Shown: piece by piece, positions 1 to 63,031 of the stretch
How positions within the stretch are numbered: position 1 is the stretch's first letter
How the letters are laid out: every line of letters starts with the position of its first letter
Assembly (NCBI GenBank): GCA_000004985.1
Contig: GG738845.1
DNA: 64,000 nucleotides
Direction: 5' to 3' (one strand)
Source: Naegleria gruberi
Taxonomy: Eukaryota
The notes under the pieces: generated by a model
Told to the model about the DNA's origin: nothing
Databases searched by the model: none
Seen by the model: the letters and a program-made list of their open reading frames with translations, nothing else
Translations under genes and position numbers: made by a program

Positions 1-666
1 ACTCTAATTAAACATCCTTCATTTAATTTGTTTGCTGAAGATTTCTTTTTGATTCCACTTGAACTCTTTTTTAAACTATCAAAATGTTGTTGTTTTTCAG
101 ATTTTGGCTTTTGTTCCTTTGGTGTGACTGTTTAATATGTGCATTTATAAATTTCATCAATTCGATCAAAATTATTGGTTTAATAATTGTATCATGTTGA
201 ATTCCAATATAATATAATAATCCAAGTAATTGTCCATTGTTATGCATAAATAATTTCCATCCATCATGTAAATTTTAAATAAAAAGACGTACACTTTTTA
301 AAAGTCATCCATACAGAATGTTTATCCTTATTTTCACTATACAATTGCGAAACTTTTGTAATAAATTCGTGTTTGTTATTAATATAAACCATTTGTTCCG
401 ATCAAAAAAGTATTATTATTCTTATTGTGCTTTGGTGCAATTTCCTCGTCTCAATTTTTTTTATTTTTAAATATTTTATTTGATTACATCATCAAGGCAA
501 ACTTGCAAGCCAAATTAATTTCATCACACACATAAATATTAATATTACTAGATTTCGGAATTCATGTTTTGCTGCTTAATAGACAGATAAAACGTGATTC
601 ACAAAATTTGATGAACAAGAGAATTACCTGACCACATCTAATAATAGATAATAAAAATTGAAAAAA

Positions 667-1730
667 ATGAATTGGTATTTTACTGATCAAGAATTGGCTT
701 TGCTTCCATCACTTCAGGGAGAGAATAAAATAACGAGGGAGAGTGAAGCTGAATATAGAAGATCAACAGCATCGTTTATTCAACAAGCTGGTATTCATTT
801 GAAAGTGTAGGTTGAAAATAGTAGAATAGTAATTTTAAATTTCCGAAGTCCACAATTAACCATCGCAACTAGTCTAGTATTCTTTCATAGATTTTATGCT
901 AAATATGAATTTCAAAAACATGATAGATTTGTATGTAGTAGTTGGTAGTTTTTTCGGATAGAATTAATATTTTGGAAATTAATTTGTTTGTGGATTATTG
1001 GATGTTGTTGTATTTATAATAATTTATTCATAATTATAATAATAATTATTGGAAATGATTGCAGACGGTTGCTATTGCTTGTCTGTTTTTAGCAGGTAAA
1101 GTGGAAGAAACACCAAAGAAATTAAAGAATATTATCGATTCTAGTGATGCTGTACGAAAGAGTAAACAATCAACTAAGGAAATGGAAAAATTAATTGAGG
1201 ATGTTATTGAAAAGGAAAAATTATTATTGAAATTATTGAATTTTGATTTTAAAATTGAACATCCATATAAATCAGTCATGCATTATATTTACAATTTAAA
1301 GAAAGATGACAAGTATAAAGATAAGGTTAAAGAGTTGGCACAATATGCTTGGAATTTTGTGAACGATAGTTTCCAAACTCTCTTGTGTTTGCAATATCCT
1401 CCAAGAAAGATTGCTGCTGCCTGTATTTACTTATCAACAAATCAATATATCAATATACAATTACCTGATGGATGGGAACAATCAGATGTCTTTAAAACTA
1501 CACACGCCGAAAATGAAAAGATTTCAAAAATAATTTCAGCTCTCTACCCTCAACAACCAAAGAAGAAATTACCATTTGAGGTTATTGACAACAACACAAG
1601 TGGATCAGCTAGTAGTTCAAGCAATGTTCAAGAACAACCAAGCACAACAGAAAATCCTTCCTCCTCAACATTACAAGACACTCAGGACTCGATAATGAAA
1701 GGAAATTCAGAATCTGCCACTGAGTTTTAA
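667..1730 (+). CDS. Cyclin of the cyclin C/K/L/T-like family. Three exons: 667..806, 849..930 and 1065..1730.
   Basis: The cyclin-box reading 'PQLTIATSLVFFHRFYAKYEFQKHDRF' and 'TVAIACLFLAGKVEETPKK' is only contiguous after removing two introns. Intron 1 is 807..848 (GTAGGT...AG) and intron 2 is 931..1064 (GTATGT...AG). Phases are consistent across both junctions, and the ATG sits in an A-run context. Confidence 0.7.
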
Positions 1731-2027
1731 AGCACAAACAATGTCAATAAATAATTTAACCTCTTACAATTATGAATCTGATTAATAAGCCTCCCATTCA
1801 AGGTGTATCAGTAATGAAGAAGATAATCTGCTATTAACATTCGATTGGTTTTGTTAGAAAATCAACAAGAATTCTTCTTCACCTTCAAAGAATATTTTTT
1901 ACATTTAAAAAAAATACAAAAACAAATATTTTGTGATCCGATCAATCTTCATCACGAATATTTTTCATCATCATTATTGGCCATCATCGCAAAGAATAAT
2001 ATTTATTGGAAAAAACAACTTGTACAA

Positions 2028-2756
2028 ATGGTAAAACTTTCACCGGAATTAGTAGCATCATCAGCACAATTTTTCAATCCAATCAAGGAGAGAGAATTAG
2101 ATTTGAGAGGAAATAAAATTGTAACTATTGAAAATCTTGGTACTACGAGGGATAGTTTTGATGTGATTGATTTTTCGGATAATGAAATTGCTAGAATGGA
2201 GAACTTTCCATTGCTAAGAAGATTACATACACTCTTTTTTAACAATAATAGACTAAATTATATTGATGAAAAGCTAGGAGAAAAGAATTTACAAAACTTG
2301 GAAACTTTAATATTGACTAATAATTATTTCAAGGAACTTTACGAGTTGAACGGATTAAAGACATTTAAAAAGTTGAAATCGATATCATTGCTGGACAATT
2401 TGGTAAATAAGAAGGAAAACTATAGGTTATATTTGATATTCCTCTTACCAACTTTAAAGTACTTGGATTTCATCAAGGTAAAGAAAATTGAAAGAGATAG
2501 ATCTAAACACATCTATGGAACACTTGCCAAGCCAACAGAGGAAGCTCAAAAAATTCTAGGAATTACAAAGACAGCAGCTGTCATTAGTACAGAAACTAGT
2601 AACAAACAAGCATCTGCTTTAACAGAAAAGCCAGCCCTCTCTCCCGAGGAAATTATGAAAATCAAAAAAGCAATCATACAAGCCAAAACGCTTCAGGAAG
2701 TTGAATATTACAAACAAGCTCTCAAACAAGGTATTCTTCCAAAGGAGCTTCATTAG
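2028..2756 (+). CDS. U2 snRNP protein A' (SNRPA1/Lea1), a leucine-rich-repeat protein.
   Basis: Translation from the ATG at 2028 reads 'MVKLSPELVASSAQFFNPIKERELDLRGNKIVTIENLGTTRDSFDVIDFSDNEI...LRRLHTLFFNNNRL', which is near-collinear with U2A' proteins. The six-frame track's ORF at 1845 uses an upstream non-ATG start. Confidence 0.75.
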   Translation: MVKLSPELVASSAQFFNPIKERELDLRGNKIVTIENLGTTRDSFDVIDFSDNEIARMENFPLLRRLHTLFFNNNRLNYIDEKLGEKNLQNLETLILTNNYFKELYELNGLKTFKKLKSISLLDNLVNKKENYRLYLIFLLPTLKYLDFIKVKKIERDRSKHIYGTLAKPTEEAQKILGITKTAAVISTETSNKQASALTEKPALSPEEIMKIKKAIIQAKTLQEVEYYKQALKQGILPKELH

Positions 2757-2860
2757 ATTATGTAACATTACAAATTGTTGTTATTAATAAATATTTCAAT
2801 TTCACTCTCCAAATTTCAATTTCACTTTGAAGCTCAATATCAAATTTTAACAAATAAAAA

Positions 2861-4090
2861 ATGTCCCAAGATCACTCAACTTCATTACAATTAACTACTG
2901 ATCAGACAAATTTAAAAAGTATTATTTGTAGAGCTCTCGAAAAAAGTGAGATATTCAGACAGCGTTTCGCTGAGAAATTCCATCAAACAACTCTGGAAAA
3001 TTTGTGTATTAAAAGTTCTGCCATCGATAATGGCATTAGTAACAAGATTTTCACAATTGAATTATCCTCATCTTCTCCCTCATTAGTAGAAACAGCAATC
3101 GAGAAAAATTCGATCTGGAGCTGCATGGAAGTGATCCTTAAAATTACTTCTGACAAGTCCACAAATATTCCTTCATTATTTAACAAGACACTGAATGAGG
3201 CATGTATTATGAAATTCCTACATGCCAATCTTGCTCATCAATTTAAATCTCCAACAATTTATGATCATACAGATGGGAATGGGAAGGGAGAAAGTGAAAT
3301 GGATTACATTCTGATGGAGAAATGTGAAGGAATGGCCTTGAATTTGATTTATGATGAATTGAGTGATGAGGAGAGAAGATTGCTCATTTCACATATAAGT
3401 GAGATGAGAGGTAAATTATGTGAATTTGCATTCATTCCAGAGGATTCTCATGGAAACTTAAAGGAAACTCTATTTGGATCAGTGCTAGATATTAAGGTAG
3501 TTAATGATAAGGTTGCTCATGTCACTGTTGGAAGAAATAGTGATGGAGATGGACCATTTGAATCATTTTCAGACTTTTTAATTGCTAATTTTGAAAAAAG
3601 GATTGAAGAAATGCTCAAAGATGAAAGAGTTTCGTCTCTAGTTTACAATTTTCAACAATTAGTGAAGTATCTGAAAGAGAAACCTCTTTCTATTTCTTCA
3701 GATTTATATCAATTATGTCACATTGATTTGACCCCAAATAATGTTATTGTCAATCCTTCCACCAATCACATTACTGGCATAATTGACTGGGAATGGGGAG
3801 TAATGACTCTCTTAGATATGGACATTAATGAATTAATGACATGGACAAGAAATGATCAAGAAATATCCTTCCTCAAAGAATGTCTCCACCAGCACATTCC
3901 CCAAATTGGTAAAAACTCGAATTTTTGGGAGGAATTTGAAGGGAGAAGAAAATTATTTCTAGCACTGGATTGGGCCATTCGATTATCAAGTTACAAGAAT
4001 TGGTTTAGAAATGATGAAACAGAGGCAGAATCATTCATTGTGAAGGCATTGGAAAATACCAAGCAGTTTTTTATGGAAAATTCATTCTAA
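2861..4090 (+). CDS. Protein-kinase-like phosphotransferase of the APH/choline-kinase fold family.
   Basis: The Brenner/APH motif 'HIDLTPNNVIV...ITGIIDWEWG' is present. The ATG has an A-run context. Confidence 0.5.
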   Translation: MSQDHSTSLQLTTDQTNLKSIICRALEKSEIFRQRFAEKFHQTTLENLCIKSSAIDNGISNKIFTIELSSSSPSLVETAIEKNSIWSCMEVILKITSDKSTNIPSLFNKTLNEACIMKFLHANLAHQFKSPTIYDHTDGNGKGESEMDYILMEKCEGMALNLIYDELSDEERRLLISHISEMRGKLCEFAFIPEDSHGNLKETLFGSVLDIKVVNDKVAHVTVGRNSDGDGPFESFSDFLIANFEKRIEEMLKDERVSSLVYNFQQLVKYLKEKPLSISSDLYQLCHIDLTPNNVIVNPSTNHITGIIDWEWGVMTLLDMDINELMTWTRNDQEISFLKECLHQHIPQIGKNSNFWEEFEGRRKLFLALDWAIRLSSYKNWFRNDETEAESFIVKALENTKQFFMENSF

Positions 4091-27223: not shown

Positions 27224-27267
27224 TTTGGCGCCAAACATTTTAAAATCATTTCAGCGCCAAAAAAAAA
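27224..27267. promoter_or_regulatory. A 70-bp bidirectional promoter carrying a palindromic E2F/DP-like site TTTGGCGCCAAA (27224..27235) and a second GCGCCAAA half-site (27252..27261).
   Basis: The site lies between the divergent ATGs of the MORN gene (27196, minus strand) and APC1 (27267, plus strand). The same motif is found upstream of other cell-cycle genes in the window. Confidence 0.5.
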
Positions 27268-30200
27268 TGAAAAATCATCATCACAATCCTGTTCTCACGC
27301 TCATCAACAAGGAACCTCTATCACTTTCGAATAGTAAATACACACTAACGAAGATATTCACATTTATAAACAAGGGAAGAGAGGAGAGGATCGTAATTCA
27401 AATACCTACGGAATTAAATAACAAGGAATTAGAGCCTCCACAAGTTATTTGGTATTATGGAAGTTCGGATGCTCTCCGAGTACACAGAAAATATAAATTT
27501 AGCAGTCATCAACATCATCCGAATATTCCTATTATTCCAAATGATGTTTGCTTGTGTACTTTCTCATCAAATGAAAAAATGTTGTGTATATTATTGGATA
27601 ATTCAAGGATTGAAATTTATGGCGAGTCTGGAAGATCTTTTATTGTTTCTTTGCCATGTAAAATGAGCAAAATTTGGAGCTTAAATGATGAATATTTATT
27701 AGTGGAACGGAAAATAGTCAACCCAGATCCATCTAGCACTATTCCTATTATTTATTATTTAACACATCCATTGGAAGATTTAAAAGCTCTTGCATCTGTT
27801 GTTGATAATCAATCAAATGATATGGAAGATGATATATTAATGACTGAGCCAATATATGATTACTTGAAAAGTGAAGAGGAAGTCATTGCTTACATATTTT
27901 TGAACTTGTTCATGATTACCTTCAATACTAACACCAAAATATTGTCAATATATTCAATAATGGAAGAAGGTTTTGTTCAAAGAATACCATATGCTGATAA
28001 TAATGATTTCTCAGACTATTTGAAATGCAATTTGGAAACAGTTCAAATTTCAATCTTTCCACAAAATAATTTTGGTACTGAGTATACCCTCTTTTTGATT
28101 AATAACAATAGCCTATTTGCTTTCACCATCTTCAGAAATGATCTAGAAGAGGCATTCATTCTTAAACCAAAATTTTTCAAAGAAGGTGTTGTATCCATTT
28201 CTGAATTTAACTACCCTCTAGCAAATGAAACACTTTTTAATGGAAATATAGAGGGATTCTTACATTTGATGATCTTGGCAGAAAATTCCAATTACTCTTT
28301 AATATTAGTTTTGGATGGTGAGTTCATCATGTGGGAACAAGCCCTTGACAGTCAATATTCAAAGATTGAACATCTTGTGGACAATAGACTCTCCCTTAAA
28401 ACAGCCGACTACTCTCTAAGATATAGACTTGATATTTGCCCTAATTCGAAACTAGTACAAGATTGTCTCTCAGTCTTTCAATCAGTCCTAACAAAGGACT
28501 TATTTTCGAGTATTTTCTACGACTTTCAAACATCTAGGATTGGAAATGCTAATGACTGGGATATTTTCATTAACCTGTTAAATTATTTAACATTTGGAGT
28601 TGAACCAAATAGTCCCACCACTCAGGAATCTGATCCATGGAAATTAATGGAACTTATCCATACAAAAAATAGTGCCACATCAAGTCAAATATTCAATACA
28701 TCCAAACTGAGAACAAACAAACAGGTACTTATCCAAAACTTGCCTTTGATTCTGATTTCAATACACTTACTCTACGAAAATTACAAATTACACACCTCAG
28801 AGTGGAACAATGTAGAAACTCTTGTCAGATACCTTTTCAATCTTTCAAACAAATTGAAATGGAAAGCATTTAGTGAAGTTTACCAAAGGGACTTTAATTA
28901 CACCTTGACTTTGACAGTGCCATCTAATCCAGTTGACATTGAGTTCCCGGTTGTTGAAAAGATTAAATTCCTCAACAATTACTACACAACTGGTATAATT
29001 GCACCAACCATTTTAGGATGGATTGAAGAAATATTTATCAATAAGAGTTTAAATGTTGATCTAATGTATCCTTCAATCACTAATTGCTCGGCAACAAGTC
29101 TTTCAAGAAAGATTTGCAGGTTTTTCTCTTTACTTGTTACCAATAAGGAAGATCTTTACAATGTTGAGAGCAATAATAACAGTGTTTCAATGGATATCAA
29201 CGGTTTACAAACAGGGCTACTTGATTTACCTCCACACGAACGTGTAGCAATAGCTTTATTACAAGAGGGCTTCTCTAGTGTTGATGGATTGAGTTTTTTA
29301 CCATTTAGTGTCTCACTTCCAATAAGAGAGGCTTTAGTACAATGTAGAAACAGCATTCAACCTGTAACCAGAACCCCTGAATACTGTAAGCTCATAGAAA
29401 GAGAGGATTTGGCTGTCAATAATCAAGCCCAATCTGAATCCGAAGTTCTACTGGATGGAAATCAAATCGTTTCAGAATTTACAAAAACGCTGGGAACAGG
29501 AGTCCCTTCTATTGCCAGTAATCAAGATTCTGAGGATGATATAGGTCATATGATTTGGAGTGAAGATAGGAGACTTGAGCAAGTGAGTAAAATGCTAGAT
29601 AGTAGTATACCTACTCAGATTCAAAAGCATACACTTCAACTTAGCGAGGATGATTTGGATGGTTTTGATCCTAACGATGCACCAGAATTACAACGTAAAA
29701 TCCTACTCAACATGAAGCAACAAGTTCTTTCATTCTGTATTGGAAGAGGAATGCTTTCCATTGCCAGCAAGAAGAATAATAATTCAGGATCTGTTTCTAA
29801 TGATACCACGAGTAATATTTTGACAATACCTCCAATAGTTTTATCATCCAAACTTAAAAGAAATAGAGCTATTATGACCATAGATGTATCAAAAATAGTA
29901 CCAGAAAATGAAATTTCTGCCTCGTGCAGCACTCAATGGGCTGAATTCCATAATGGGGTGGCCTCTGGATTAACAATTGGAAGAGACTCTAAAATAACGA
30001 AAGAGTGGATAATGTTCCACAAGCCAAACAAGAGGGCTGGACAGTTTATGAACAAGACTTCAAACGATAGTGTCTCTCATGCTGGCCTCTTATTAGCCTT
30101 AGGTCTACAAGGTCATTTGACATGTCTTGGACCAACTGATATTTATGGCTATCTTCAACAGAGACACGAAGCAACCACTATTGGAATTTTACTAGGATTA

Positions 30201-32462
30201 TCATGCTCATATATTGGAACACAAGACCAATATATTACAAGATCACTTTCACTCTATGTTCCTTCCCTTGTTGTTGGAATGAGCGATATGGAAATGCCAA
30301 TGGAAGTAAGTGGTGCTGCACTTGTTGGCATTGGTTTATTATATATGGGAAGTGGTCATAGATTTATGACTGAAGTACTATTGGGCGAATTGGCAAGACC
30401 ACCAAACGATAATTCCACCAATTCAAGAGAAAGTTATTCACTTTCAGCAGGTTTTGCACTTGGATATGTCCACTTGGCCAAGGGTGCCAATGGAAGCAGT
30501 CATGAACTCAAAATGGATCAAAGACTTCTTTCCTACATGACTGGAGGAAGTAAACGACCAGAGTTTGACACATTTGCAATGATGGCATCCAAATCAAAGT
30601 CTCAAATGATACAAAAAGGAGGAAAAGGTCAAAATACTAGTGAGTTTGTTAACACCTCTTGTTCAAGAATTAAGGAAAATGAAAAGTTTGTCAATGTGGA
30701 TGTGACTGGACAAGGTGCTTGTATTGCTTTAACTTTGAAATACTTGAAAACACACGACCTTACAATTGCCTCTGAAATGAAAGTTCCAGACACCAAATAC
30801 ATGTTGGACTATGTCAGACCAGATATGATCATTTTGAGAATCGTTGGATCGTCTCTAATTATGTGGGATCATATTAAGAATACTGATGAATGGATCAAAT
30901 CCAAACTTCCAGGTGTACTGAATAATACTGCACCAATATCTATTGTTGAGAGCAGTGAACTCTCAAAGATATATGCCTATTCTGTTAGTGGATGTTGTAT
31001 GGCAATTGGATTGAAATATGCTGGATCCCACGACACGAAAGCATACAATCTCTTACTTGGACTGTTACAACAAGTCATCAAATCAAAACTCAAAATATTC
31101 TTGAATAATGAACAAATGCAAATACCATACTCTGTCAATCTAGACAAATACACAACTGATAGAGCTACAACTGTTATTCTATTGAGTATTTGTTGTGTGA
31201 TGGCTGGCAGTGGTAACATTGAAGTTATACGTATCATCAAATCATTAAGACAGAAATATGTAGCATCACCAGCTACTCAACAGGGAGGATATGGCATACA
31301 TATGGCTTTGTCTATGTCTTTGGGTTTACTCTTCTTGGGAGGTGGACGTTGTTCACTGAGTACAAATGATAGATCTATTGCTGCTCTTCTTTGTTCTATT
31401 TACCCAATTTTCCCTCAAACTACAACTGACAATAGATACCATTCACAAGCCCTTAGACACATGTATATTCTTTCCACAGAAAATAGACTTATAGAAACTG
31501 TCGATATTGACACCAAAGAAAGATGTCACGTACCAATTCAAATAGAAACTACTCATGGCGATGTTCTACACAAACTTTCTCCTTGTTTGATTCCAGAGGC
31601 TCATCTTCTTAAAAAGATTACAACCATGAATGAGAGGTACTATCCTCTAACTATTAGTGAATTCCCACTTAAGAGCCATATTATTAATGTAAAGAAGAAA
31701 TCAGGATATTTGACTTACAAGGATGATCCTAAAGGAATAAGATCAACTGTACATTCTAACTTTATATCAAACCTGGTTGATCAAGATCCTGAATCTCTTG
31801 TTAAATTATTCGAAAAAATGTCCTATCACACTCATATTGGACCATATGTGAAATATAGAATCTTTACTCAGAATAACATCTCATCGGATGATAGAAATAT
31901 TGCCAACGCCATCAATTCCCTCTCACTTAATGAGCATACCTATGGAAATGTTGCCCTCATGCTCTATCACGCTCTAACTGAGTCGCTGACAAATGATTGC
32001 CCAGATGTTTTGTACCTATTTGAGTGTATCCTTAATTCTCTAAAGATCATCACAGACTCTAAGAATTGCACTCTTTCCAAATCAATTTATACCTCATGTT
32101 TTAAACAACTGTTCTCGTACTATAGTTCGAGGGATCATTTATTACAATCGAGAAATTCTACAATTGAACCAATCAAGCCCCTTATTTCTATTCACTTTAT
32201 AGAATGCGTAAAATCGTATTTGGATAATTATTTCTCTTCACTTTCAATAGATTGGACAAAATTGTCAAACAAGGAACTAGGATTGGGAGCCTATTGCTTA
32301 TTCTACAACCTTCCTTACCTTCACCTCTTGAAAGATTGTATCAAACAAAATCAAAAAGTCATGAACAGAGAGGCCCTTATTATTTACCTTCTTTCAATCC
32401 TTTCTCATTCCTCCATCACTCTCCCACACATTGAAAATATTATTTCATACTTGTCATCATAA
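27267..32462 (+). CDS. Anaphase-promoting complex subunit 1 (APC1).
   Basis: A 1730-aa protein with PC repeats: 'HAGLLLALGLQGHL', 'IGILLGLSCSYIGT', 'GAALVGIGLLYMGSGH' and 'SAGFALGYVHLAKG'. Confidence 0.6.
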   Translation: MKNHHHNPVLTLINKEPLSLSNSKYTLTKIFTFINKGREERIVIQIPTELNNKELEPPQVIWYYGSSDALRVHRKYKFSSHQHHPNIPIIPNDVCLCTFSSNEKMLCILLDNSRIEIYGESGRSFIVSLPCKMSKIWSLNDEYLLVERKIVNPDPSSTIPIIYYLTHPLEDLKALASVVDNQSNDMEDDILMTEPIYDYLKSEEEVIAYIFLNLFMITFNTNTKILSIYSIMEEGFVQRIPYADNNDFSDYLKCNLETVQISIFPQNNFGTEYTLFLINNNSLFAFTIFRNDLEEAFILKPKFFKEGVVSISEFNYPLANETLFNGNIEGFLHLMILAENSNYSLILVLDGEFIMWEQALDSQYSKIEHLVDNRLSLKTADYSLRYRLDICPNSKLVQDCLSVFQSVLTKDLFSSIFYDFQTSRIGNANDWDIFINLLNYLTFGVEPNSPTTQESDPWKLMELIHTKNSATSSQIFNTSKLRTNKQVLIQNLPLILISIHLLYENYKLHTSEWNNVETLVRYLFNLSNKLKWKAFSEVYQRDFNYTLTLTVPSNPVDIEFPVVEKIKFLNNYYTTGIIAPTILGWIEEIFINKSLNVDLMYPSITNCSATSLSRKICRFFSLLVTNKEDLYNVESNNNSVSMDINGLQTGLLDLPPHERVAIALLQEGFSSVDGLSFLPFSVSLPIREALVQCRNSIQPVTRTPEYCKLIEREDLAVNNQAQSESEVLLDGNQIVSEFTKTLGTGVPSIASNQDSEDDIGHMIWSEDRRLEQVSKMLDSSIPTQIQKHTLQLSEDDLDGFDPNDAPELQRKILLNMKQQVLSFCIGRGMLSIASKKNNNSGSVSNDTTSNILTIPPIVLSSKLKRNRAIMTIDVSKIVPENEISASCSTQWAEFHNGVASGLTIGRDSKITKEWIMFHKPNKRAGQFMNKTSNDSVSHAGLLLALGLQGHLTCLGPTDIYGYLQQRHEATTIGILLGLSCSYIGTQDQYITRSLSLYVPSLVVGMSDMEMPMEVSGAALVGIGLLYMGSGHRFMTEVLLGELARPPNDNSTNSRESYSLSAGFALGYVHLAKGANGSSHELKMDQRLLSYMTGGSKRPEFDTFAMMASKSKSQMIQKGGKGQNTSEFVNTSCSRIKENEKFVNVDVTGQGACIALTLKYLKTHDLTIASEMKVPDTKYMLDYVRPDMIILRIVGSSLIMWDHIKNTDEWIKSKLPGVLNNTAPISIVESSELSKIYAYSVSGCCMAIGLKYAGSHDTKAYNLLLGLLQQVIKSKLKIFLNNEQMQIPYSVNLDKYTTDRATTVILLSICCVMAGSGNIEVIRIIKSLRQKYVASPATQQGGYGIHMALSMSLGLLFLGGGRCSLSTNDRSIAALLCSIYPIFPQTTTDNRYHSQALRHMYILSTENRLIETVDIDTKERCHVPIQIETTHGDVLHKLSPCLIPEAHLLKKITTMNERYYPLTISEFPLKSHIINVKKKSGYLTYKDDPKGIRSTVHSNFISNLVDQDPESLVKLFEKMSYHTHIGPYVKYRIFTQNNISSDDRNIANAINSLSLNEHTYGNVALMLYHALTESLTNDCPDVLYLFECILNSLKIITDSKNCTLSKSIYTSCFKQLFSYYSSRDHLLQSRNSTIEPIKPLISIHFIECVKSYLDNYFSSLSIDWTKLSNKELGLGAYCLFYNLPYLHLLKDCIKQNQKVMNREALIIYLLSILSHSSITLPHIENIISYLSS

Positions 32463-33516: not shown

Positions 33517-33533
33517 ATTTTGGCGCCAAAAAA
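33517..33533. promoter_or_regulatory. E2F/DP-like site TTTTGGCGCCAAAAAAG.
   Basis: It lies 32 bp upstream of the ATG of the BUB1-like gene. Confidence 0.45.
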
Positions 33534-33564: not shown

Positions 33565-36099
33565 ATGAGTTCTCAACTGCACTTGAAACGTCAACAAAAA
33601 CAAATTCAAGATGCAATCGATAAATACTACTCTGGAATATCTAATGACAATGCTATGGATATAAAAAAGGATACACAATTATTATCTGGTCTTGTTGGAT
33701 ATCTTTCCGGATTTCAAGAGAGTGATTTGGCCTTTGAAACAAGAGGTGATGTCATTGAGAGATTTTTCGAAAAGTATTATAACAGTTTTATGAATGGTGG
33801 TAATTATCCACCTGAATTATATTCCGATAAAACAATTTGGGATTTGTGGCTTTTATATGCAGAGGCTCATACCAATGATCCTATTCCACACATTCAAACT
33901 CTACTTGAATTTGCTCCTAAATATCCAAAGTTATTTGAGGTCTGGGCCACTTGGTCGAGAAGAACAGGACGTATTGATGATGAATTAACAGCATATGAGG
34001 AGGCTGAAACGAGAGGTGTTGTATCCGAATTGTTATCGAGCATGAAACAAGACAGATCCGAATATTTCCAACCTCCACCATCACAACAACAAACAATTCC
34101 TGAACCTAAGATTAAAACCACCACCACCGTAACTAATACTGTAATCAAACAACCTGTTGCACATCAATCTGTGGAAACATTGGTTAACAATCCAAGACCA
34201 CCTTCACCAACCCCACAAAATTATTTGATTGGATATGACAAGAATCTAATCTTTACTCCAGGTGCAGAGTTTACTTTTGAGGAATTGAGAGCAATGCACT
34301 ATTTAAATACCACTGATTTAATGATTAATCACAAACAAACAATACCTAGTTCATCATCAATTTCACACAACCAATCTTTAATTGAACAACCTAAGCATCA
34401 TGATTCCTCTATTCTTATGAATAAGAATTTTGAAAAACCATCAAGCAAACCTCAACAAAAAGACGACGACTTTGAATTTGATTTTTCAAGTGATATTACC
34501 ACAGTACATGCAAGAAAATCAATGGCTGCAACTCCTACTTCTTACGCTCAACATACTATTGCCAGCTTTTTTGAGGGAACCATTGATACTGAAATTGAAA
34601 ACAATTACTTTGAACAACGAAAGTTCCGTAAAGTGCAAGAACAAGAGAAAAAGAGAAAACTTGATGAAATTTCACAATCAACAAATAATAATTTTGCCAT
34701 ACATGAAGATACAACAGCTGAAATTAAGAAATCTAGGCTGACAGCTCAACCATCCAGTAGTACCTTTAAAATACCATCTCAGACATCTTCTGGCTTTCAA
34801 AATACAAGTCTTCAACAAGAACGTTCATTCTCTCAAAGAAATAGATCCCTAAGTGCATTCCATCAGTTTAATGATACAGGAGATGAATCAGGTCTCTATT
34901 TTGGAGATGAATCTAACATTTCAAAAACTTTCATTGTTGATAGACAGCAAGAAAGTGCGATATCATTGGAAGGAATATCAGCCCTTATTTCAAAATACAC
35001 AAATAATGGAGTAATCAATCCGTACATGGAAGATATACGAAAAGTGTATACTAATATTGTTAACATAACTAATTGCTTTAAAGACAGTCGTATTACTGAC
35101 TGTAAAGGAGTTGAATCTATAGATTTAAAAACTATTCTGCTGGAGCTAAGTAAAAAGAAGAAAGGTATCGACTATAATACTCAAACATTAAGCTTGAAGT
35201 TGAGTACAAAGACATACCTTGCCGAAGAAGCACTATCTGAACATGTGATCAAAATACAGGATGTAAGAAGTAACAATGGAATTAATACCAAATCATTTGC
35301 CTTGAAATTTAAGCCACCAAATGATTTCTATGAGTACTATGTGATCGATCAGCTGTATAGAAGAATACCAGAGAAGGAAAATCATAGATTCCCAAATATT
35401 CAAAGAGTTTATGTTATGGATAATGATATTCTATTGATGGAAAACCTTGTAAATAACATTACTCTCACACAGGCAATATCACAAGCAAAAATTGAGGAAA
35501 CAATTGCTTTGTACTATACTTTAGAACTTCTCAATATTTTGCAAACTCTGCATAATAAGGCAAACATTACACACAATAATATTTCTCCATCTAATTTATT
35601 GCTTTTAAATGAAGATACTGATCTATCTGATTGGAGTATAGATGGAAAGGGTTGGAGTAATAAGGGTCTACTGCTCACCAACTTTTCCAGGTCTATTGAT
35701 TTAGAACTATTTCCAAACCGTGTTGTTTTCCAAAGTGAACCCAAAACATTACCAGAAGTTTTCAAATCATCAATACAATATCCAAACAAGTGGAAATATG
35801 CATCAGATACTTGGAGTGTTTGTAACATCATCCACCAAATGCTTTTTAAGAAGGACATGGAGGTAACAACGAACGCTCAAGACAAGTATCTAATTAAGGA
35901 ATCCATAAGGAGATTCTGGAAATTTAGAGATGTTTGGCAAACCATTTTCGATACTTTACTAAATCTTGACCAGACAAAGAGTCCAGATTATTACCAATTA
36001 ATAGAAATGTGTCAACAGGCGTTAGGAACAAATGGAGACACAGTTAAAGCTCTTTTCTTGAGATTCATTGTCTCACTTTCTACTCAATTAAAACACTAA
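33565..36099 (+). CDS. BUB1/Mad3(BubR1)-like spindle-checkpoint protein with a degenerate C-terminal kinase-like domain.
   Basis: The N-terminal Mad3/BUB1 homology region 'LYSDKTIWDLWLLYAEAH...LFEVWATWSRRTGRIDDELTAYEEAETRGV' matches the 'YSDPRFLNLWL...FYISWA' pattern. The C-terminal kinase-like region carries 'HNNISPSNLLL' in place of HRDLKPEN, so it is probably a pseudokinase. Confidence 0.5.
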   Translation: MSSQLHLKRQQKQIQDAIDKYYSGISNDNAMDIKKDTQLLSGLVGYLSGFQESDLAFETRGDVIERFFEKYYNSFMNGGNYPPELYSDKTIWDLWLLYAEAHTNDPIPHIQTLLEFAPKYPKLFEVWATWSRRTGRIDDELTAYEEAETRGVVSELLSSMKQDRSEYFQPPPSQQQTIPEPKIKTTTTVTNTVIKQPVAHQSVETLVNNPRPPSPTPQNYLIGYDKNLIFTPGAEFTFEELRAMHYLNTTDLMINHKQTIPSSSSISHNQSLIEQPKHHDSSILMNKNFEKPSSKPQQKDDDFEFDFSSDITTVHARKSMAATPTSYAQHTIASFFEGTIDTEIENNYFEQRKFRKVQEQEKKRKLDEISQSTNNNFAIHEDTTAEIKKSRLTAQPSSSTFKIPSQTSSGFQNTSLQQERSFSQRNRSLSAFHQFNDTGDESGLYFGDESNISKTFIVDRQQESAISLEGISALISKYTNNGVINPYMEDIRKVYTNIVNITNCFKDSRITDCKGVESIDLKTILLELSKKKKGIDYNTQTLSLKLSTKTYLAEEALSEHVIKIQDVRSNNGINTKSFALKFKPPNDFYEYYVIDQLYRRIPEKENHRFPNIQRVYVMDNDILLMENLVNNITLTQAISQAKIEETIALYYTLELLNILQTLHNKANITHNNISPSNLLLLNEDTDLSDWSIDGKGWSNKGLLLTNFSRSIDLELFPNRVVFQSEPKTLPEVFKSSIQYPNKWKYASDTWSVCNIIHQMLFKKDMEVTTNAQDKYLIKESIRRFWKFRDVWQTIFDTLLNLDQTKSPDYYQLIEMCQQALGTNGDTVKALFLRFIVSLSTQLKH

Positions 36100-36254
36100 T
36101 GTACAAATTAACTTAATTTATTAAAATATAAAGTTATCTAAACTTTTTTACCTTCCTTTAGCTGTTGTTAGTATTTAATTTGTGCAGATTATTAACTGAA
36201 AAGTTTGCCAATCTGATATTCTAAACACGGTTGATTTTCACCCACTTTTCTAGC

Positions 36255-37499
36255 TCAATTGAATATTTCCCAAATACCTCTTAAAGTCTTGTGATGAACA
36301 GCATAGGGTATTTCTAATCCTCCTCTCAATAATTTGAGTACATCAATTCCCATCATCATACCCACCATTCCTGAAATTTCTCCCAAAAGACCTTCAATGC
36401 TAGAGGTTAACACTTCTGTAATTCTGTTCTCATTGAGAGAGGAGTAAGCAAACGAAATGACAACTACATCTTTTTCAACCTCAGTCAATTTGACGATAGA
36501 GAGTTTTGATTCCCACCGAACTGAAACAAGAGACGGATCTTCAATTGTTGGCTTCAATCGAGTAGTGACATATTTTGTAAGGACGAAATAATTATCAACC
36601 TTGGAGATTGCAAAATTTGTTTCTGCAAACACTGGTGGGACTGTACCAGGTTCGTGGAAAGAAACTTGCAACCCGAATCTAGCATCTCGTTCCACTGGAG
36701 CTAGTGGTACTCTAAAGAATAAACTAATGGTGCCTCCATAACCAGTTGCATTGGCTGCCAATAGGTTCTGAGTATCATTATTAAATACTACAATTTCCAA
36801 AATGAAAATAATGGTTAGCTTTTCATTGATTCAACCAAACCTACCGTAACAAGTAAAATATTGGCCATTTTGTTCAATCTCTGTTATGGTGTGAGGAAGT
36901 TCAAACTGCTCAATAGTTCCATACTCTTGATTGACTGTTGTTGAATACATTAGTGTAAGATTACAATAATCACAATCCAAAGCAGCATTCCAATTACAAA
37001 CCGTAATAGCAGGATAGTAGAGAGGTAAAGACTCCACATACGCCAATGAGGTTGTTGGATTACCCAAAGAAGTGACATAATTACTAATGGAATTACTGAT
37101 ATACCAAGCTACAAACACAATGACCATAATCCATGCCACAAATGTAATGGCTTCTCCTATTGTAAAATTGAATCTTAATCTTCCTTTTTTTGCCTTTACA
37201 ACCACCAGATCTTCATCCTTTTCCATCTCTACTGGTTTCTTATCATTCTGTAAAGGTATGTGAATAGGAGAAGCATTCTCTTTAAATTCACCACTCGAAT
37301 CAGCTAATTGCAATCCAGAAACTATTGAAATAGAGAGTGGTATTTGTGTTTTCGTCTCATATTCCGATAAGCTCTGTTGCTTAATCAATGGTGACTCACT
37401 ATTTACACTACTAGCTGTTGAAAATTCCCTACTATTTTGTCTTCCGTTTATTGTTGATGATGAGAGAGTGGAGAGATTCCCCCTACTTTGTTCATTCAT
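36255..37499 (-). CDS. Two-TM membrane protein, a candidate ENaC/degenerin-like channel. Two exons: 37499..36845 and 36787..36255.
   Basis: TM1 is 'FVAWIMVIVFVAWYI', followed by a post-TM1 'LPLYYPAITVCNWN' motif (compare ENaC 'FPAVTIC'). A 'GLQVSFHEPGTVPP' palm-like segment precedes TM2, which is Gly-rich: 'GLLGEISGMVGMMMGIDVL'. The intron (+ coordinates 36788..36844) has donor GTAGGT and acceptor TTGTAG, and phase checks. Confidence 0.4.
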
Positions 37500-37544
37500 T
37501 TTTTTCTGTTTAAAAATGGCTATGATTCAAAAAATTCGTAAAAC

Positions 37545-37556
37545 TTTTGGCGGAAC
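37545..37556. promoter_or_regulatory. E2F-like site TTTTGGCGGAAC.
   Basis: It lies 46 bp upstream (higher coordinates) of the ATG at 37499 of the minus-strand channel-like gene. Confidence 0.35.
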
Positions 37557-37702
37557 AACTTTTTGGAAGTTCATCTCTGCAACTCTTAATGTTCCAATGA
37601 TGGATTTTGAATCATTGTGATGTTGAGGATCTTTATTGTAATAACAATGAGATCTAGTGAAAATTTAAACCTAATACAGTTGATTGAGATAATCTTACTA
37701 AT

Positions 37703-38545
37703 TTATACAAGTTTTGAAATGTTTTTGTGTAAATTGTCTTCCGAGAAGGATGAGATGAGAGAACAGTTGAATTCATCATAATTAATAACTCTATTTGTTT
37801 GGCCCATTAACATGAGCAAGTCGCCATTCCTTATAACACTCTCCTTAATGATGGTTTTTCCATCATAGTCATACTTAAGATTTGAATCATTACACAGTAC
37901 TTTCATATGATTGACTCGAGCAAAATCTTGAAGTGAATCAAGGAGAGGACTTAACTCTCTCGAATGTAGATAAAGAGTTCGTTCTCTTTGCAAGATGGTC
38001 AGTAATTCGTCCTTTTGGAGTGCTTTCAGTTCTCCACCATTGAGTAGACGATCCGATAGATCAATTTGTATCAGTTCTCGAGTGGAATTATCTCTCAAAT
38101 CTCTTTGGAAAATGAAATCCAATGGCTTTTTGAAAAGTAAATATTCCACCAATACTTGATTGGAAAACATGGATTCCTTCTCAACACGATAATGAAGAGC
38201 AACAATGTCTCTATCACTCCTACTACTTGTTGGTTGCTTCATTTCTTTCAAATTGGGAGCACAGAATTGTGGCTTTTCCAGTATGATATCATTATCTAAA
38301 CTTGATGTCTTGATGAATCCATATATCTTGGTCTTTCTTCCATCGAGTAAAAGCTCATCCCGTGGCAGCGTTTTATATTCATCCTTTATTTGAGTGAGAA
38401 GTTGATCTACATATCGTGATCGGAAGAGTGAAAAATTTCTTGTTGAGTTATGACGACCATGAAATATTATGGATGACGATGATGATCCATGTAAGATGTT
38501 GTATTTAATAATTAAATTGTTGCTTCCAGTTGTTAGTCTTTTCAT
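37703..38545 (-). CDS. Hypothetical protein.
   Basis: A 280-aa ORF with an A-run ATG. It is divergent from the F-box gene and the two share an E2F-like site. Confidence 0.45.
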   Translation of the reverse strand: MKRLTTGSNNLIIKYNILHGSSSSSIIFHGRHNSTRNFSLFRSRYVDQLLTQIKDEYKTLPRDELLLDGRKTKIYGFIKTSSLDNDIILEKPQFCAPNLKEMKQPTSSRSDRDIVALHYRVEKESMFSNQVLVEYLLFKKPLDFIFQRDLRDNSTRELIQIDLSDRLLNGGELKALQKDELLTILQRERTLYLHSRELSPLLDSLQDFARVNHMKVLCNDSNLKYDYDGKTIIKESVIRNGDLLMLMGQTNRVINYDEFNCSLISSFSEDNLHKNISKLV

Positions 38546-38600
38546 TTTTTTGAATTTGATTTATTTCATTCTAAATATTTTTTAAAACTCAACGATTTGT

Positions 38601-38613
38601 ATTGGCGCCAAAC
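38601..38613. promoter_or_regulatory. E2F/DP-like site ATTGGCGCCAAAC in a divergent promoter.
   Basis: It lies between the ATGs at 38545 (minus strand) and 38769 (plus strand). Confidence 0.45.
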
Positions 38614-38768
38614 ATGAGTTCAAGTGTTATAGGCAGCAATTTCAACTACATTCATGTTGCAATGGCCAATATAAATTTAAGAAAACCTAATTTAAATATT
38701 GATAATGATTTAGGGGAATGTCCAAATGTTCTTAATGTTCTCTAAGGTTGGAGTTTTTTAAAAAAAAA

Positions 38769-39911
38769 ATGCTTACAAATCTCCCTCAAGAAATTCATCA
38801 CGAAATTTTCACCTATCTAGACTATGTGGGTGAATTGTGTCGATATAAGAAACTCATGATTCCTCGATTTAATCTCTCGGAGTGGACAAGAGAGGAATTT
38901 GAGAGTAAAATTATGGATTCTAATGATGAAATTTGCACCGATCAACTCGATGTTAACTTTGATAAGAAACCACTCTTTTTAACTTGTAAGGCATTCTACC
39001 ATTCCGTACAGAGTTTTAAACCACTCTCTTTACATTTTAAAATTTTAGGAAGAAGTCAGAGTCCAAAACATGAATTTGATTTTTATAAATCGTTTTTGAT
39101 ATCTTTGTTTTCAAGTCATGATGATAAGAAACCTAAGAAGACTAATAGAGGTGATTATTCAGAGATGATATATGAATTTATTCAGAATATTGAAAAATTC
39201 ACAAATTCATCTTTTACCTTTGAAAATGTTGAACATGTAGAATTTTGGAGCAGTGAATTGAAATTCTTTTCAAATTGCGATTTAAGCAAATTGATTTTGA
39301 GTAATTTTTACAATGTAAAAGTTGTAAATGTTAACTTTAGCGGAAATTACAGTAAAACTTTGCATTTTAGAGTTATAGAATGTCAAAGATTGAACAAATC
39401 ATTTGTTGGACCTAAAATACACTCTAATTTCAATAGTACAAGAATTAATGTGGACGATTTAGATAGAATCTTCTCTCCAGGCTATATTTTGAATATAGAG
39501 GCGTACTTATTGAGTGCTATTGAAACAAACTTTCAAATAGTATTCGATTACATATTGAGTAGATATAGGATTGACATTGAATATTTCATTTATCTGTGTA
39601 ATGTACAACCGAATTTTCTGTTTGGTGAAGACAAGAGTTTAGAATCAGTTTTGCAAATGCTACAAAAACTTCATAACAAGTATCCAAAATTTAAATTGTT
39701 TCACTTGCCAATTTATTCAGTGAATTATTTCAAATTGCTTCCAAGGTATTCATTTGTGGATTTGGATTTATCAAGAAATTTATCATTGAAGTTTGTTAAA
39801 ACAATTTGGAGCAACCCTCAATTGAAAGAAATGACCATTACAAGGAGTGGAAATGACCTTTCGGATTGGGGAGAGTTAATTAATTCGCTAGAATTCAATC
39901 GTGGTTGTTGA
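38769..39911 (+). CDS. F-box-like protein, otherwise hypothetical.
   Basis: The N-terminus reads 'MLTNLPQEIHHEIFTYLDYVGELCRY', and the ATG has an A-run context. Confidence 0.5.
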   Translation: MLTNLPQEIHHEIFTYLDYVGELCRYKKLMIPRFNLSEWTREEFESKIMDSNDEICTDQLDVNFDKKPLFLTCKAFYHSVQSFKPLSLHFKILGRSQSPKHEFDFYKSFLISLFSSHDDKKPKKTNRGDYSEMIYEFIQNIEKFTNSSFTFENVEHVEFWSSELKFFSNCDLSKLILSNFYNVKVVNVNFSGNYSKTLHFRVIECQRLNKSFVGPKIHSNFNSTRINVDDLDRIFSPGYILNIEAYLLSAIETNFQIVFDYILSRYRIDIEYFIYLCNVQPNFLFGEDKSLESVLQMLQKLHNKYPKFKLFHLPIYSVNYFKLLPRYSFVDLDLSRNLSLKFVKTIWSNPQLKEMTITRSGNDLSDWGELINSLEFNRGC

Positions 39912-48470: not shown

Positions 48471-48479
48471 TTTTGGCGG
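48471..48479. promoter_or_regulatory. E2F-like half-site TTTTGGCGG.
   Basis: It lies 37 bp upstream of the LRR gene ATG at 48516 and 40 bp after the CHD stop. Confidence 0.3.
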
Positions 48480-61384: not shown

Positions 61385-61398
61385 ATTTGGCGCCAAAT
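61385..61398. promoter_or_regulatory. E2F/DP-like site TTTGGCGCCAAATT.
   Basis: It lies 36 bp upstream of the RbBP5 ATG at 61349 on the minus strand. Confidence 0.45.
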
Positions 61399-62383
61399 TG
61401 TATTTGAGCAGATTCAATTCAATTTTGCGTATTATGGTTCAAATGCTGATATAACACTGTCTCTTCAAATAAATATCAAAACAATTACATTGATCACAAA
61501 CTAACACACTGCAATAATTACCTATAGAATTAGAACAGTTTAGAATGTTGGTAAATGGTTCACTCTGATCTTATTATAAAATGTTATGATCCCCACATTC
61601 TTCAACCTCAATATTTGTTGGCGTTTAATGTTGGCAATCATTCATGCTTGATTTCTATTGTTGTTAAGGATCGGTACAATACACTAAACAGCAGTATCTC
61701 CCTTATTTTCAACCTACTAAACCAATGCTGCAATATGCATACCATTGTTTGAAACAATCAACACACCACATGAACCATTGAAATACTGTGGCATAATCGA
61801 TTCATTCGATAAAGACCAAAATTAAGAGTACAAATGTTGACAGTAAACTCCAGTAAGCGCGAGATTTGTATTAAAATTACACGCTCTGTTTAATCCCTAT
61901 AATCGCTCGTAAAAATCTCTGGTGGTCCATACCTTAGGAACCTTGATAGAAAATCTCCTCTATAACAAGGAATGCATTGTTATCTTTAGCTGAAATTACA
62001 CTAGTGAGCGCGATGTGAAACTTCTTAGTAAACCTTCGCCCTGATCCGAAAGGTACAGTTTGAATGTGCCCCTCATATTATAGAGAGAAGTAACCATCCA
62101 TTTTCACAACAACTCAATGTGGTATCCCTTCCACACACAACCAACACAACACCCCAATCTCAGCCAAAACATATATAGTGGTGTTAGAGAAATGGAGAGA
62201 GCATTATTCAAAAAAACAACTTTAATCCCCTCCCAAAGCTTGGCTACGTGTCTGTAGACTGGTTGTGTACATTCAATCCATCACTCCATTACCAATCCCT
62301 ATTTATCAACACCACCATCACTAATCTTCCCTAACTCATTTTTCATTTTCCTCAATTCTTAACAATACACTGACATTTTGAAC

Positions 62384-63031
62384 ATGTTTGCCTTAACTTC
62401 ATCACCAATACCAACTAGTAATGGAACGATCTCACACTTGGTTAACTTAACCAATGTAAAAACTTCCACTCATATATTATGTGTTCCTGACTATACGTCC
62501 TCATCAACCACTAGTCAAAACTCTGATGAGTATGTTTCAATTCTGAAAAGAAGTAACAACCGTACTCGTAAATCTCTCATTCTTGATGAAGATTCCACTT
62601 CAAGTTCCAATGAAGACGAAGGCAAGTCAAGAATGAGATCAGTAGACTTGAAAAACACGTTTACCACCTCACACCAATCTCAAATCATTCGGTGCAATAG
62701 AACAAGTGCCAATCAAAAGAGTTACATTTGCTATGATGATATTAAGAAGCATTTCTTTCTTCCAGAAGGAGAAGCTGCAAAACGTTTGGGGTGCTCCAAG
62801 AGTAAGCTCAAAAGAATCAAGACAAGACTCAATATTGAACGTTGGCCATACAGAAGAATCCAATCTCTGTTAAACCAAAAGTCAAGTTCCAACAAGGAAA
62901 ATTCAAGGTTGATTGACTTGGCTGTTGATTTTGTTTTGAATTATCCAAACTTAATTACCAAATATTCCAATGATGATATTTCTCTTATTGCCAAACGTTT
63001 TGATAGAGTCAAGATTAGTAACCTTTTGTAA
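62384..63031 (+). CDS. RWP-RK-domain protein, a putative transcription factor.
   Basis: The C-terminal domain 'YICYDDIKKHFFLPEGEAAKRLGCSKSKLKRIKTRLNIERWPYRRI' matches the RWP-RK consensus, including the RWPYRR signature. The first ATG is at 62384. Confidence 0.6.
   Translation: MFALTSSPIPTSNGTISHLVNLTNVKTSTHILCVPDYTSSSTTSQNSDEYVSILKRSNNRTRKSLILDEDSTSSSNEDEGKSRMRSVDLKNTFTTSHQSQIIRCNRTSANQKSYICYDDIKKHFFLPEGEAAKRLGCSKSKLKRIKTRLNIERWPYRRIQSLLNQKSSSNKENSRLIDLAVDFVLNYPNLITKYSNDDISLIAKRFDRVKISNLL

Follow-up and report, generated by a model that had tools for sequence, protein, structure and literature searches.

Channels of the DEG/ENaC superfamily are usually viewed as an animal invention, with gating by protons, peptides, force and proteolysis ascribed mostly to the finger and thumb of the ectodomain and selectivity to three pore elements: the Gly-Ala-Ser (GAS) belt, a His-Gly (HG) motif and the glutamate at position 18' (E18') of the second transmembrane (TM) helix, TM2. 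A re-entrant loop bearing the HG motif lines the lower pore and touches the GAS belt (PMC7308080), and Na+ selectivity of ASIC1a requires the charge of E18' (PMC5449180). Non-metazoan DEG/ENaC genes have been reported solely in Cafeteria, Symbiodinium and Tunicaraptor, where they cluster with the ASIC and ENaC groups (PMC10507113, PMC9822975), and a BLAST search with human ENaC reported no DEG/ENaC in the pathogenic protozoa examined (PMC3681921). PAC (TMEM206, ASOR) and DEG/ENaC share a 12-stranded core; no sequence homology between them was discernible, and their likeness has been presented as structural convergence (Deng et al. 2021, PMC7904269). The 64,000-nucleotide stretch of Naegleria gruberi DNA analysed here (from contig GG738845.1; the window) contains, on its minus strand between 36255 and 37499, a gene for a real ENaC/degenerin homologue that is a minimal variant rather than a typical ENaC. 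It belongs to an uncharacterised branch of this already known superfamily, with a short ectodomain and a rewired pore.

All coordinates follow the numbering of the 64-kb window. The ORF list places two minus-strand open reading frames (ORFs) in this region, 36831..37499 and 36255..36800, which had been joined through a GTAGGT intron in a prediction made earlier from the sequence alone (the original prediction). All GT..AG pairs that leave a single open frame were enumerated, and the option with the GTAGGT donor was chosen; the predicted coordinates proved right, and translation from the ATG at 37499 gives an open product of 395 residues. The parts of the gene and of its protein are as follows:

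36845..37499, minus strand: exon 1 (coding), residues 1-218 and the first base of codon 219, from the ORF list, splice enumeration and translation
36788..36844, minus strand: intron of 57 nt with a GTAGGT donor, a GCTAAC branch-like box and a TAG acceptor
36255..36787, minus strand: exon 2 (coding, including the stop), remainder of codon 219 to residue 395
37062..37160, minus strand: TM1, residues 114-146, with Kyte-Doolittle values up to 2.27 and an AlphaFold helix over 114-146, aligning to TM1 of ASIC, ASIC5 and PAC
36987..37019, minus strand: post-TM1 signature Y-Y-P-A-I-T-V-C-N-W-N, residues 161-171, equivalent to DEG/ENaC FPAVTxCN and aligned to ASIC LxFPAVTxCN
36399..37061 (split by the intron), minus strand: ectodomain, residues 147-348, predicted all-beta core with palm and beta-ball
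36291..36398, minus strand: TM2, residues 349-384, placed by AlphaFold helices, alignment to ASIC and classical DEG/ENaC, conservation counts and hydropathy

Exon 1 encodes a disordered cytosolic N-terminus (residues 1-113), TM1 and the start of the ectodomain; exon 2 adds the rest of the beta-core ectodomain, TM2 and a short C-terminus ending in W-E-I-F-N. The splice junction, between Y218 and V219, reads ...YFTCY/VFNND... and restores the family motif C-Y-V-F-N-N, a stretch that is continuous in homologues whose genes are intron-free or differently spliced, such as those of N. fowleri (...YFSCYVFNNN...) and N. lovaniensis. The gene model is taken to be correct because the junction rebuilds this conserved motif, in which C217 and N221 are invariant across 45 homologues. 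A tblastn search of the window found no second ASC-like copy.

The Pfam ASC model (PF00858), proposed as a check by the original prediction, matches the protein significantly, scoring 45.7 bits where the curated cut-off is 23.6 (E 6.3e-12), and also matches 44 of the 45 family members. When the protein was compared with PDB sequences by phmmer, 22 of the 25 matches with E up to 10 were ASIC, ENaC, FaNaC or related DEG/ENaC chains. The remainder, two Prp11 chains and a 34-residue peptide, reach E values no better than 1, everything below E 1 being DEG/ENaC, and the strongest matching stretch spans the final palm strands and TM2. A profile of the family, searched against all PDB sequences, retrieved solely DEG/ENaC and PAC chains, led by FaNaC (4e-16), ASIC5 (8e-16) and ASIC1 (3.5e-15). 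Alignment by hhalign of the short family (45 sequences) with classical DEG/ENaC channels (17 sequences) scored a probability of 99.7% (E 2.2e-26), and its 263 columns run colinearly from TM1 to TM2. Pfam model, profile matches and fold therefore agree on the ENaC/degenerin-like two-TM protein that had been proposed. Its supposed protist origin is borne out by its nearest relatives, which are N. gruberi, N. fowleri and N. lovaniensis proteins with 52-69% identity, and the accompanying description of the ENaC family as essentially metazoan with rare protist examples agrees with the literature (PMC10507113, PMC9822975).

In the predicted topology two TM helices enclose an extracellular domain, and both termini are cytosolic. 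Basic residues stand next to the cytosolic ends of TM1 and TM2, and all three N-x-S/T sequons (N180, N222 and N231) fall in the predicted ectodomain. A cytosolic N-terminus followed by TM1 had been anticipated, and residues 1-113 are indeed disordered and residues 114-146 strongly hydrophobic. The maximum Kyte-Doolittle value of TM2 (1.40) lies in the same range as that of chicken ASIC1 TM2 (1.2-1.5). TM2 is divided into TM2a (residues 349-364), an extended break at G365-I366-D367 (36342-36350) and TM2b (residues 368-384), which carries K370 and R373. The peptides on which the original prediction drew were located at residues 161-168 (YYPAITVC), 262-270 (FHEPGTVPP, 36633-36659) and 351-369 (GLLGEISGMVGMMMGIDVL). 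The first of these was rightly recognised as an ENaC/ASIC-type hallmark: YPAITVCN (residues 162-169) and the CYxFN strand align to FPAVTxCN and YGKCYxFN of ASIC, with P163 kept in 43 of 45 homologues, C168 in all 45 and N169 in 39 of 45. By this alignment C168 would be the counterpart of the DEG/ENaC cysteine that pairs with the cysteine of the CYxFN strand, and a disulfide is predicted.

An AlphaFold monomer computed from the 45-sequence alignment has a mean predicted local distance difference test (pLDDT) value of 80 and is mostly above 90 from residue 114 on; an earlier alignment of 9 sequences had given a poor model (pLDDT 52). The modelled ectodomain is all-beta save for one 4-residue helix, and the TM2 helix breaks exactly at G365-I366-D367, resembling the GAS belt of ASIC. 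A Foldseek search with the model finds ASIC1 and ASIC2 at E ~1e-13, and the palm and beta-ball core of the DEG/ENaC fold is present in the prediction. Finger, thumb and knuckle are absent both from the predicted fold and from the hhalign alignment to classical members. In that alignment the classical proteins show three large insertions relative to the short protein, one of them Cys-rich, which would correspond to the finger, the Cys-rich thumb and the knuckle. The ASIC1-like fold that had been expected was consequently recovered in its palm and beta-ball but not in its thumb topology. Similarly, the Cys-containing ectodomain with a palm-like FHEPGTVPP segment holds for the peptide and the palm, but there are merely four cysteines (168, 176, 179 and 217) and no thumb, and the length of the ectodomain has to be corrected from ~230 to ~200 residues.

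The pore was aligned residue by residue to TM2 of ASIC and classical members, with positions in the prime notation that Lynagh et al. use (PMC5449180):

0': E355, ASIC D
3': G358, ASIC G
6': G361, ASIC G
10'-12': G365-I366-D367, ASIC G-A-S
15': K370, ASIC T
18': R373, ASIC E
21': L376, ASIC D

The outer part of this pore follows the classical pattern. The Deg-site residue G354 is Gly in 41 of 45 family members and Ala or Ser in the rest, and its spacing to G365 is the same as in ASIC; position 0', E355 in this protein, is acidic (D/E) in 38 of 45, and G365 is kept in 41 of 42. The inner part carries traits of the short family, with Asp at 12' and Lys at 15' each in 33 of 41 members and Arg at 18' in 21 of 41. 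The Gly-rich TM2 claimed near the C-terminus exists and retains its glycine stripe, but the G/S-x-S selectivity motif at 10'-12' is not kept and Gly-Ile-Asp (GID) takes its place. Position 18' is a nearly invariant Glu in the classical alignment, and the acidic residues at 18' and 21' are both absent from the Naegleria protein. Residues 1-115 contain no HG dipeptide, nor does the family alignment have a conserved HG column, whereas the classical controls show xHG. ENaC-like Na+ selectivity is not expected because E18' and the HG loop are missing and GID stands in for GAS. Judged by these residues, the protein is probably not an ENaC-like Na+ channel, and an amiloride-sensitive Na+ current is not to be assumed.

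The reading we favour, and hold to be probable though well short of certain, is that of a cation-permeable minimal DEG/ENaC channel subunit with low Na+/K+ discrimination that would be gated through its beta core. Gene structure, family membership, fold and the presence or absence of motifs were established directly; from these, and by analogy with described channels, we infer how the protein may trimerise, conduct, select ions, respond to a stimulus and serve the cell. Each subunit would consist of a disordered cytosolic N-terminus, TM1, a palm and beta-ball ectodomain of ~200 residues, TM2 and a short cytosolic tail. Three such subunits, alone or mixed with paralogues, would surround a central pore lined by TM2, as in ASIC, ENaC and PAC. 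Because the outer half of TM2 is classical, with G354, E355 and the glycines at 3', 6' and 10', the outer vestibule and gate would be expected to work as in ASIC. The inner half of TM2 would be rewired, with no HG re-entrant loop as a lining of the lower pore, and the pore would pass cations with little discrimination between Na+ and K+, while a ring of aspartates at 12' might allow divalent cations to permeate or to block. Since this protein has neither the finger/thumb acidic pocket nor the sites at which animal channels bind peptides, the gating stimulus would be expected to act directly on the beta core, in the form of protons, divalent ions, ionic strength or membrane stretch. For an amoeboflagellate that lives in fresh water and has at least seven paralogues, the sensing of ionic or osmotic conditions is a plausible role.

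Several observations weigh against this interpretation. TM2b (VLKLLRGGLEIPYAV) is amphipathic and is modelled at lower pLDDT (75-85). The conserved Lys 15' and Arg 18' could render the inner pore favourable to anions, like that of PAC, or may instead act as helix anchors at the membrane interface. The contacts of the HG loop and S12' that stabilise the lower pore of ASIC are gone, so that the protein might not conduct on its own. The forecasts of selectivity and gating, moreover, are drawn solely from motif substitutions.

The matches to PAC raise the alternative of a PAC-like trimeric channel, possibly acid-activated, in which K370 and R373 set anion selectivity; we regard this as unlikely. 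In its favour, the family profile matches PAC chains among the PDB sequences at E 3e-9, and hhalign aligns the short family with vertebrate PAC (13 sequences) at 94.4% and E 8.6e-8 over 253 colinear columns. The controls are clean, reversed or shuffled PAC reaching at most 0.6% (E 0.1-0.9), and PAC against classical DEG/ENaC gives 1.4% with E 0.036 over 19 columns. Some paralogues read KHPVTSVSF where PAC has KHPVMSVSY, D367 and K370 align to PAC E322 and K325, and the E18' of cation-selective relatives is Arg. The family is, however, far closer to cation-selective classical DEG/ENaC channels (E 2e-26 against 9e-8), and the PAC signal is carried almost wholly by TM1 and beta1 (E 5.6e-6; residues 105-160, 37020-37187; PxTSVSY against HPVMSVSY in PAC), the ectodomain alone and TM2 alone giving no significant hhalign alignment to PAC. 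Membership in the PAC family itself was rejected, as none of the 45 sequences matches the TMEM206 Pfam model PF15122, even with the threshold relaxed to E 10. Conservation of the acidic rings at 0' and 12' favours cations. PAC K319, which we take to determine anion selectivity, is a one-residue insertion without a counterpart here, and the position of PAC His98, presumably the pH sensor, is Asn147 in this protein and His in 4 of 45 members.

If the missing HG loop and Ser12', both part of the lower-pore network of ASIC (PMC7308080), and the charged, amphipathic TM2b are given most weight, the gene could encode a non-conducting membrane protein of DEG/ENaC fold, either an auxiliary or regulatory subunit of heteromers, for which the large paralogue family leaves room, or a surface receptor or adhesion protein. 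This appears quite improbable, as the most conserved non-structural positions are those of the pore (G354, the acidic 0', G358, G361, G365, D367 and K370), as in a working pore, and the features in question are common to the whole short family, which points to its normal state rather than to the decay of a single copy. An artefact, be it a chance ORF, a pseudogene, metazoan contamination or a recent animal-to-protist transfer, can be put aside almost entirely, even though DEG/ENaC genes are overwhelmingly metazoan (PMC10507113) and a predicted intron is needed to read this one. The frame is intact and its junction rebuilds an invariant motif; the window is densely filled with ordinary eukaryotic genes at a uniform G+C content of 27-37%. 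An independent metagenome contig carries the same locus with 97.7% nucleotide identity, and three Naegleria genomes, a malawimonad and a stramenopile contain relatives. A recent transfer from animals is further contradicted by a family that has none of the metazoan finger, thumb and knuckle insertions. Chance ORF, pseudogene and contamination were thus rejected on conservation and genomic context.

The alignments to both groups suggest, but do not prove, that the short family is a sequence bridge between DEG/ENaC and PAC, the Naegleria protein being essentially their shared core alone. A wider hypothesis, which we put forward tentatively and rate at somewhat below an even chance, is that an ancient two-TM trimeric channel of eukaryotes survives, in core-only form, as the short family. 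DEG/ENaC and PAC would then be divergent homologues and not products of convergence; finger, thumb, knuckle and HG motif would be later additions in the animal lineage, and Asp 12' with Lys 15' a third solution to selectivity.

Exact-sequence look-ups identify at least seven paralogues in N. gruberi (P0001, P0012, P0014, P0019, P0043, P0159 and P0177). Further members occur in N. fowleri, N. lovaniensis, the malawimonad Gefionella okellyi (two) and the basal stramenopile Platysulcus tardus (one), and many more in freshwater and marine metagenomes, TARA among them. A profile run against 1.8 billion representatives yielded 242 relatives, of which the ~100 best-scoring are short (~300-400 residues); channels of classical size (450-550 residues) enter from about E 1e-10 and lie mostly at E 1e-7 to 1e-5. 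Identity to full-length proteins of N. gruberi, N. fowleri and N. lovaniensis is 52-62%, and to a partial N. gruberi protein ~69-70%; no identical deposited protein was found, the top full-length match being that at 62%. Among nine sequences from the three Naegleria species, 43 positions of ectodomain and pore are invariant. The gene of N. lovaniensis protein P0005 is intronless and that of P0006 has three introns, none at the position of the single intron described here (loci L002 7001-8155, L003 7001-8294 and L004 7001-8083).

The metagenome contig k127_469614 (L001, ENA ERZ929261) corresponds in its positions 1-3255 to 35527-38800 of the window, with 97.7% DNA identity over 3.2 kb and the same gene order. 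Given this identity and gene order, the sample behind ERZ929261 contains the same or a very close species. The contig carries the exon 1 ORF at 99% identity together with the intron, at which the gene caller split the channel into two ORFs. Two of the database models look chimeric: P0001 (N. gruberi, 492 residues) fuses parts of two tandem channel copies, and in P0017 (1563 residues) a channel copy is preceded by a long, unrelated N-terminal protein. These models imply that the family has duplicated in tandem in N. gruberi and that the deposited proteome is mis-annotated. Studer et al. are said to have noted an ENaC-like gene in N. gruberi in 2011; the literature on Naegleria and ENaC, degenerin or amiloride-sensitive channels yielded no description of the short family.

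The genes around the channel locus include an APC1 homologue, a Bub1-like kinase, a CHD/SNF2 helicase and an RWP-RK protein. Two of these genes and the E2F-like site lie as follows:

27225..32462: APC1 homologue
33565..36099: Bub1-like kinase gene
37546-37553, plus strand: E2F-like half-site TTTGGCGG, 47-54 nt upstream of the channel ATG, inside a 203-nt promoter region

The upstream E2F-like site named in the original prediction is thus present. Its motif class, TTTSGCGS, occurs ten times in the window against 0.89 expected. Three perfect palindromes, TTTGGCGCCAAA, lie at 27224-27235, 33519-33530 and 61386-61397, two of them directly upstream of the APC1 and Bub1-like kinase genes; further copies of the motif are found at 27254-27261, 38605-38612 and 48472-48479. 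Several copies sit ~45-60 nt upstream of an ATG, a spacing that suggests a promoter element of fixed position, possibly a cell-cycle box. The motif probably serves this organism as a genuine promoter element, and the copy at the channel gene, a single half-site, is a putative regulatory element there. The RWP-RK domain, which marks a transcription-factor family known mainly from plants and algae, is clear (E 2e-18) in ORF 62378-63031 (plus strand). The neighbouring ORFs 37703-38545 (minus strand, 280 residues) and 38748-39911 (plus strand, 387 residues) have no Pfam match, and the former is also conserved on the metagenome contig.

Interest in the family is moderate and stems from its minimal architecture, its non-canonical pore (Asp 12', Lys 15', Arg 18' and no HG) and the possible bridge to PAC. 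A conserved, multi-copy protist family that retains the beta core and the outer pore offers a natural minimal scaffold for asking what the core contributes to sensing and conduction, and it bears on whether GAS, HG and E18' are required for conduction at all. It also provides a sequence intermediate (E 2e-26 to DEG/ENaC, E 9e-8 to PAC/TMEM206) for the question of their homology. The pathogen N. fowleri has the family too, and a channel at its surface with no close counterpart in humans could be of practical interest.

With ASIC, ENaC, FaNaC and degenerins the Naegleria protein shares the two-TM topology, the FPAVTxCN-type motif with its invariant Cys, the Cys of CYxFN, the GLLG[DE] outer-pore motif, the Deg-site Gly, identically spaced glycines at 3', 6' and 10' and the TM2 break at 10'-12'. 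It differs in having 4 cysteines in an ectodomain of ~200 residues against ~14 ectodomain cysteines in classical channels. It also has none of their His-Gly re-entrant loop, and carries G-I-D, Lys and Arg in place of G/S-x-S, Thr/Ser at 15' and Glu at 18'. The C-terminal W/Y-[DE]-x-F-N motif of the short family (residues 391-395, 36258-36272; F in 27 of 38 and N in 29 of 37 sequences that reach the C-terminus) could be a trafficking or partner-binding signal, and it has no counterpart in ASIC, ENaC or PAC. Its x-F-N end is kept in about 29 of the 45 homologues.

PAC is of similar size (~350 residues) and of the same minimal build, with two TM helices flanking a beta-domain without elaborate peripheral domains, but it is a vertebrate protein, anion-selective through K319, and carries a helix-turn-helix insertion. 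The homologues of Cafeteria roenbergensis, Symbiodinium and Tunicaraptor unikontum (PMC10507113) are likewise DEG/ENaC-related genes of unicellular eukaryotes. They are reported to cluster with the metazoan ASIC and ENaC sub-clusters, whereas the sequences from Heterolobosea, Gefionella and Platysulcus form a separate short-ectodomain group. The reported unicellular DEG/ENaC genes speak for a family that arose outside animals or before them. The N. lovaniensis loci that were checked are not syntenic with the window and differ in intron positions, and the Logan loci that were checked are non-syntenic as well. Similar Naegleria sequences are already in public databases as unnamed predicted proteins, and those that match PF00858 (N. 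gruberi XP_002680309, XP_002682191, XP_002680073 and XP_002674860, with their N. fowleri and N. lovaniensis homologues) share with the present protein the same short architecture, the GxD-x-x-K pore motif and the C-terminal motif.

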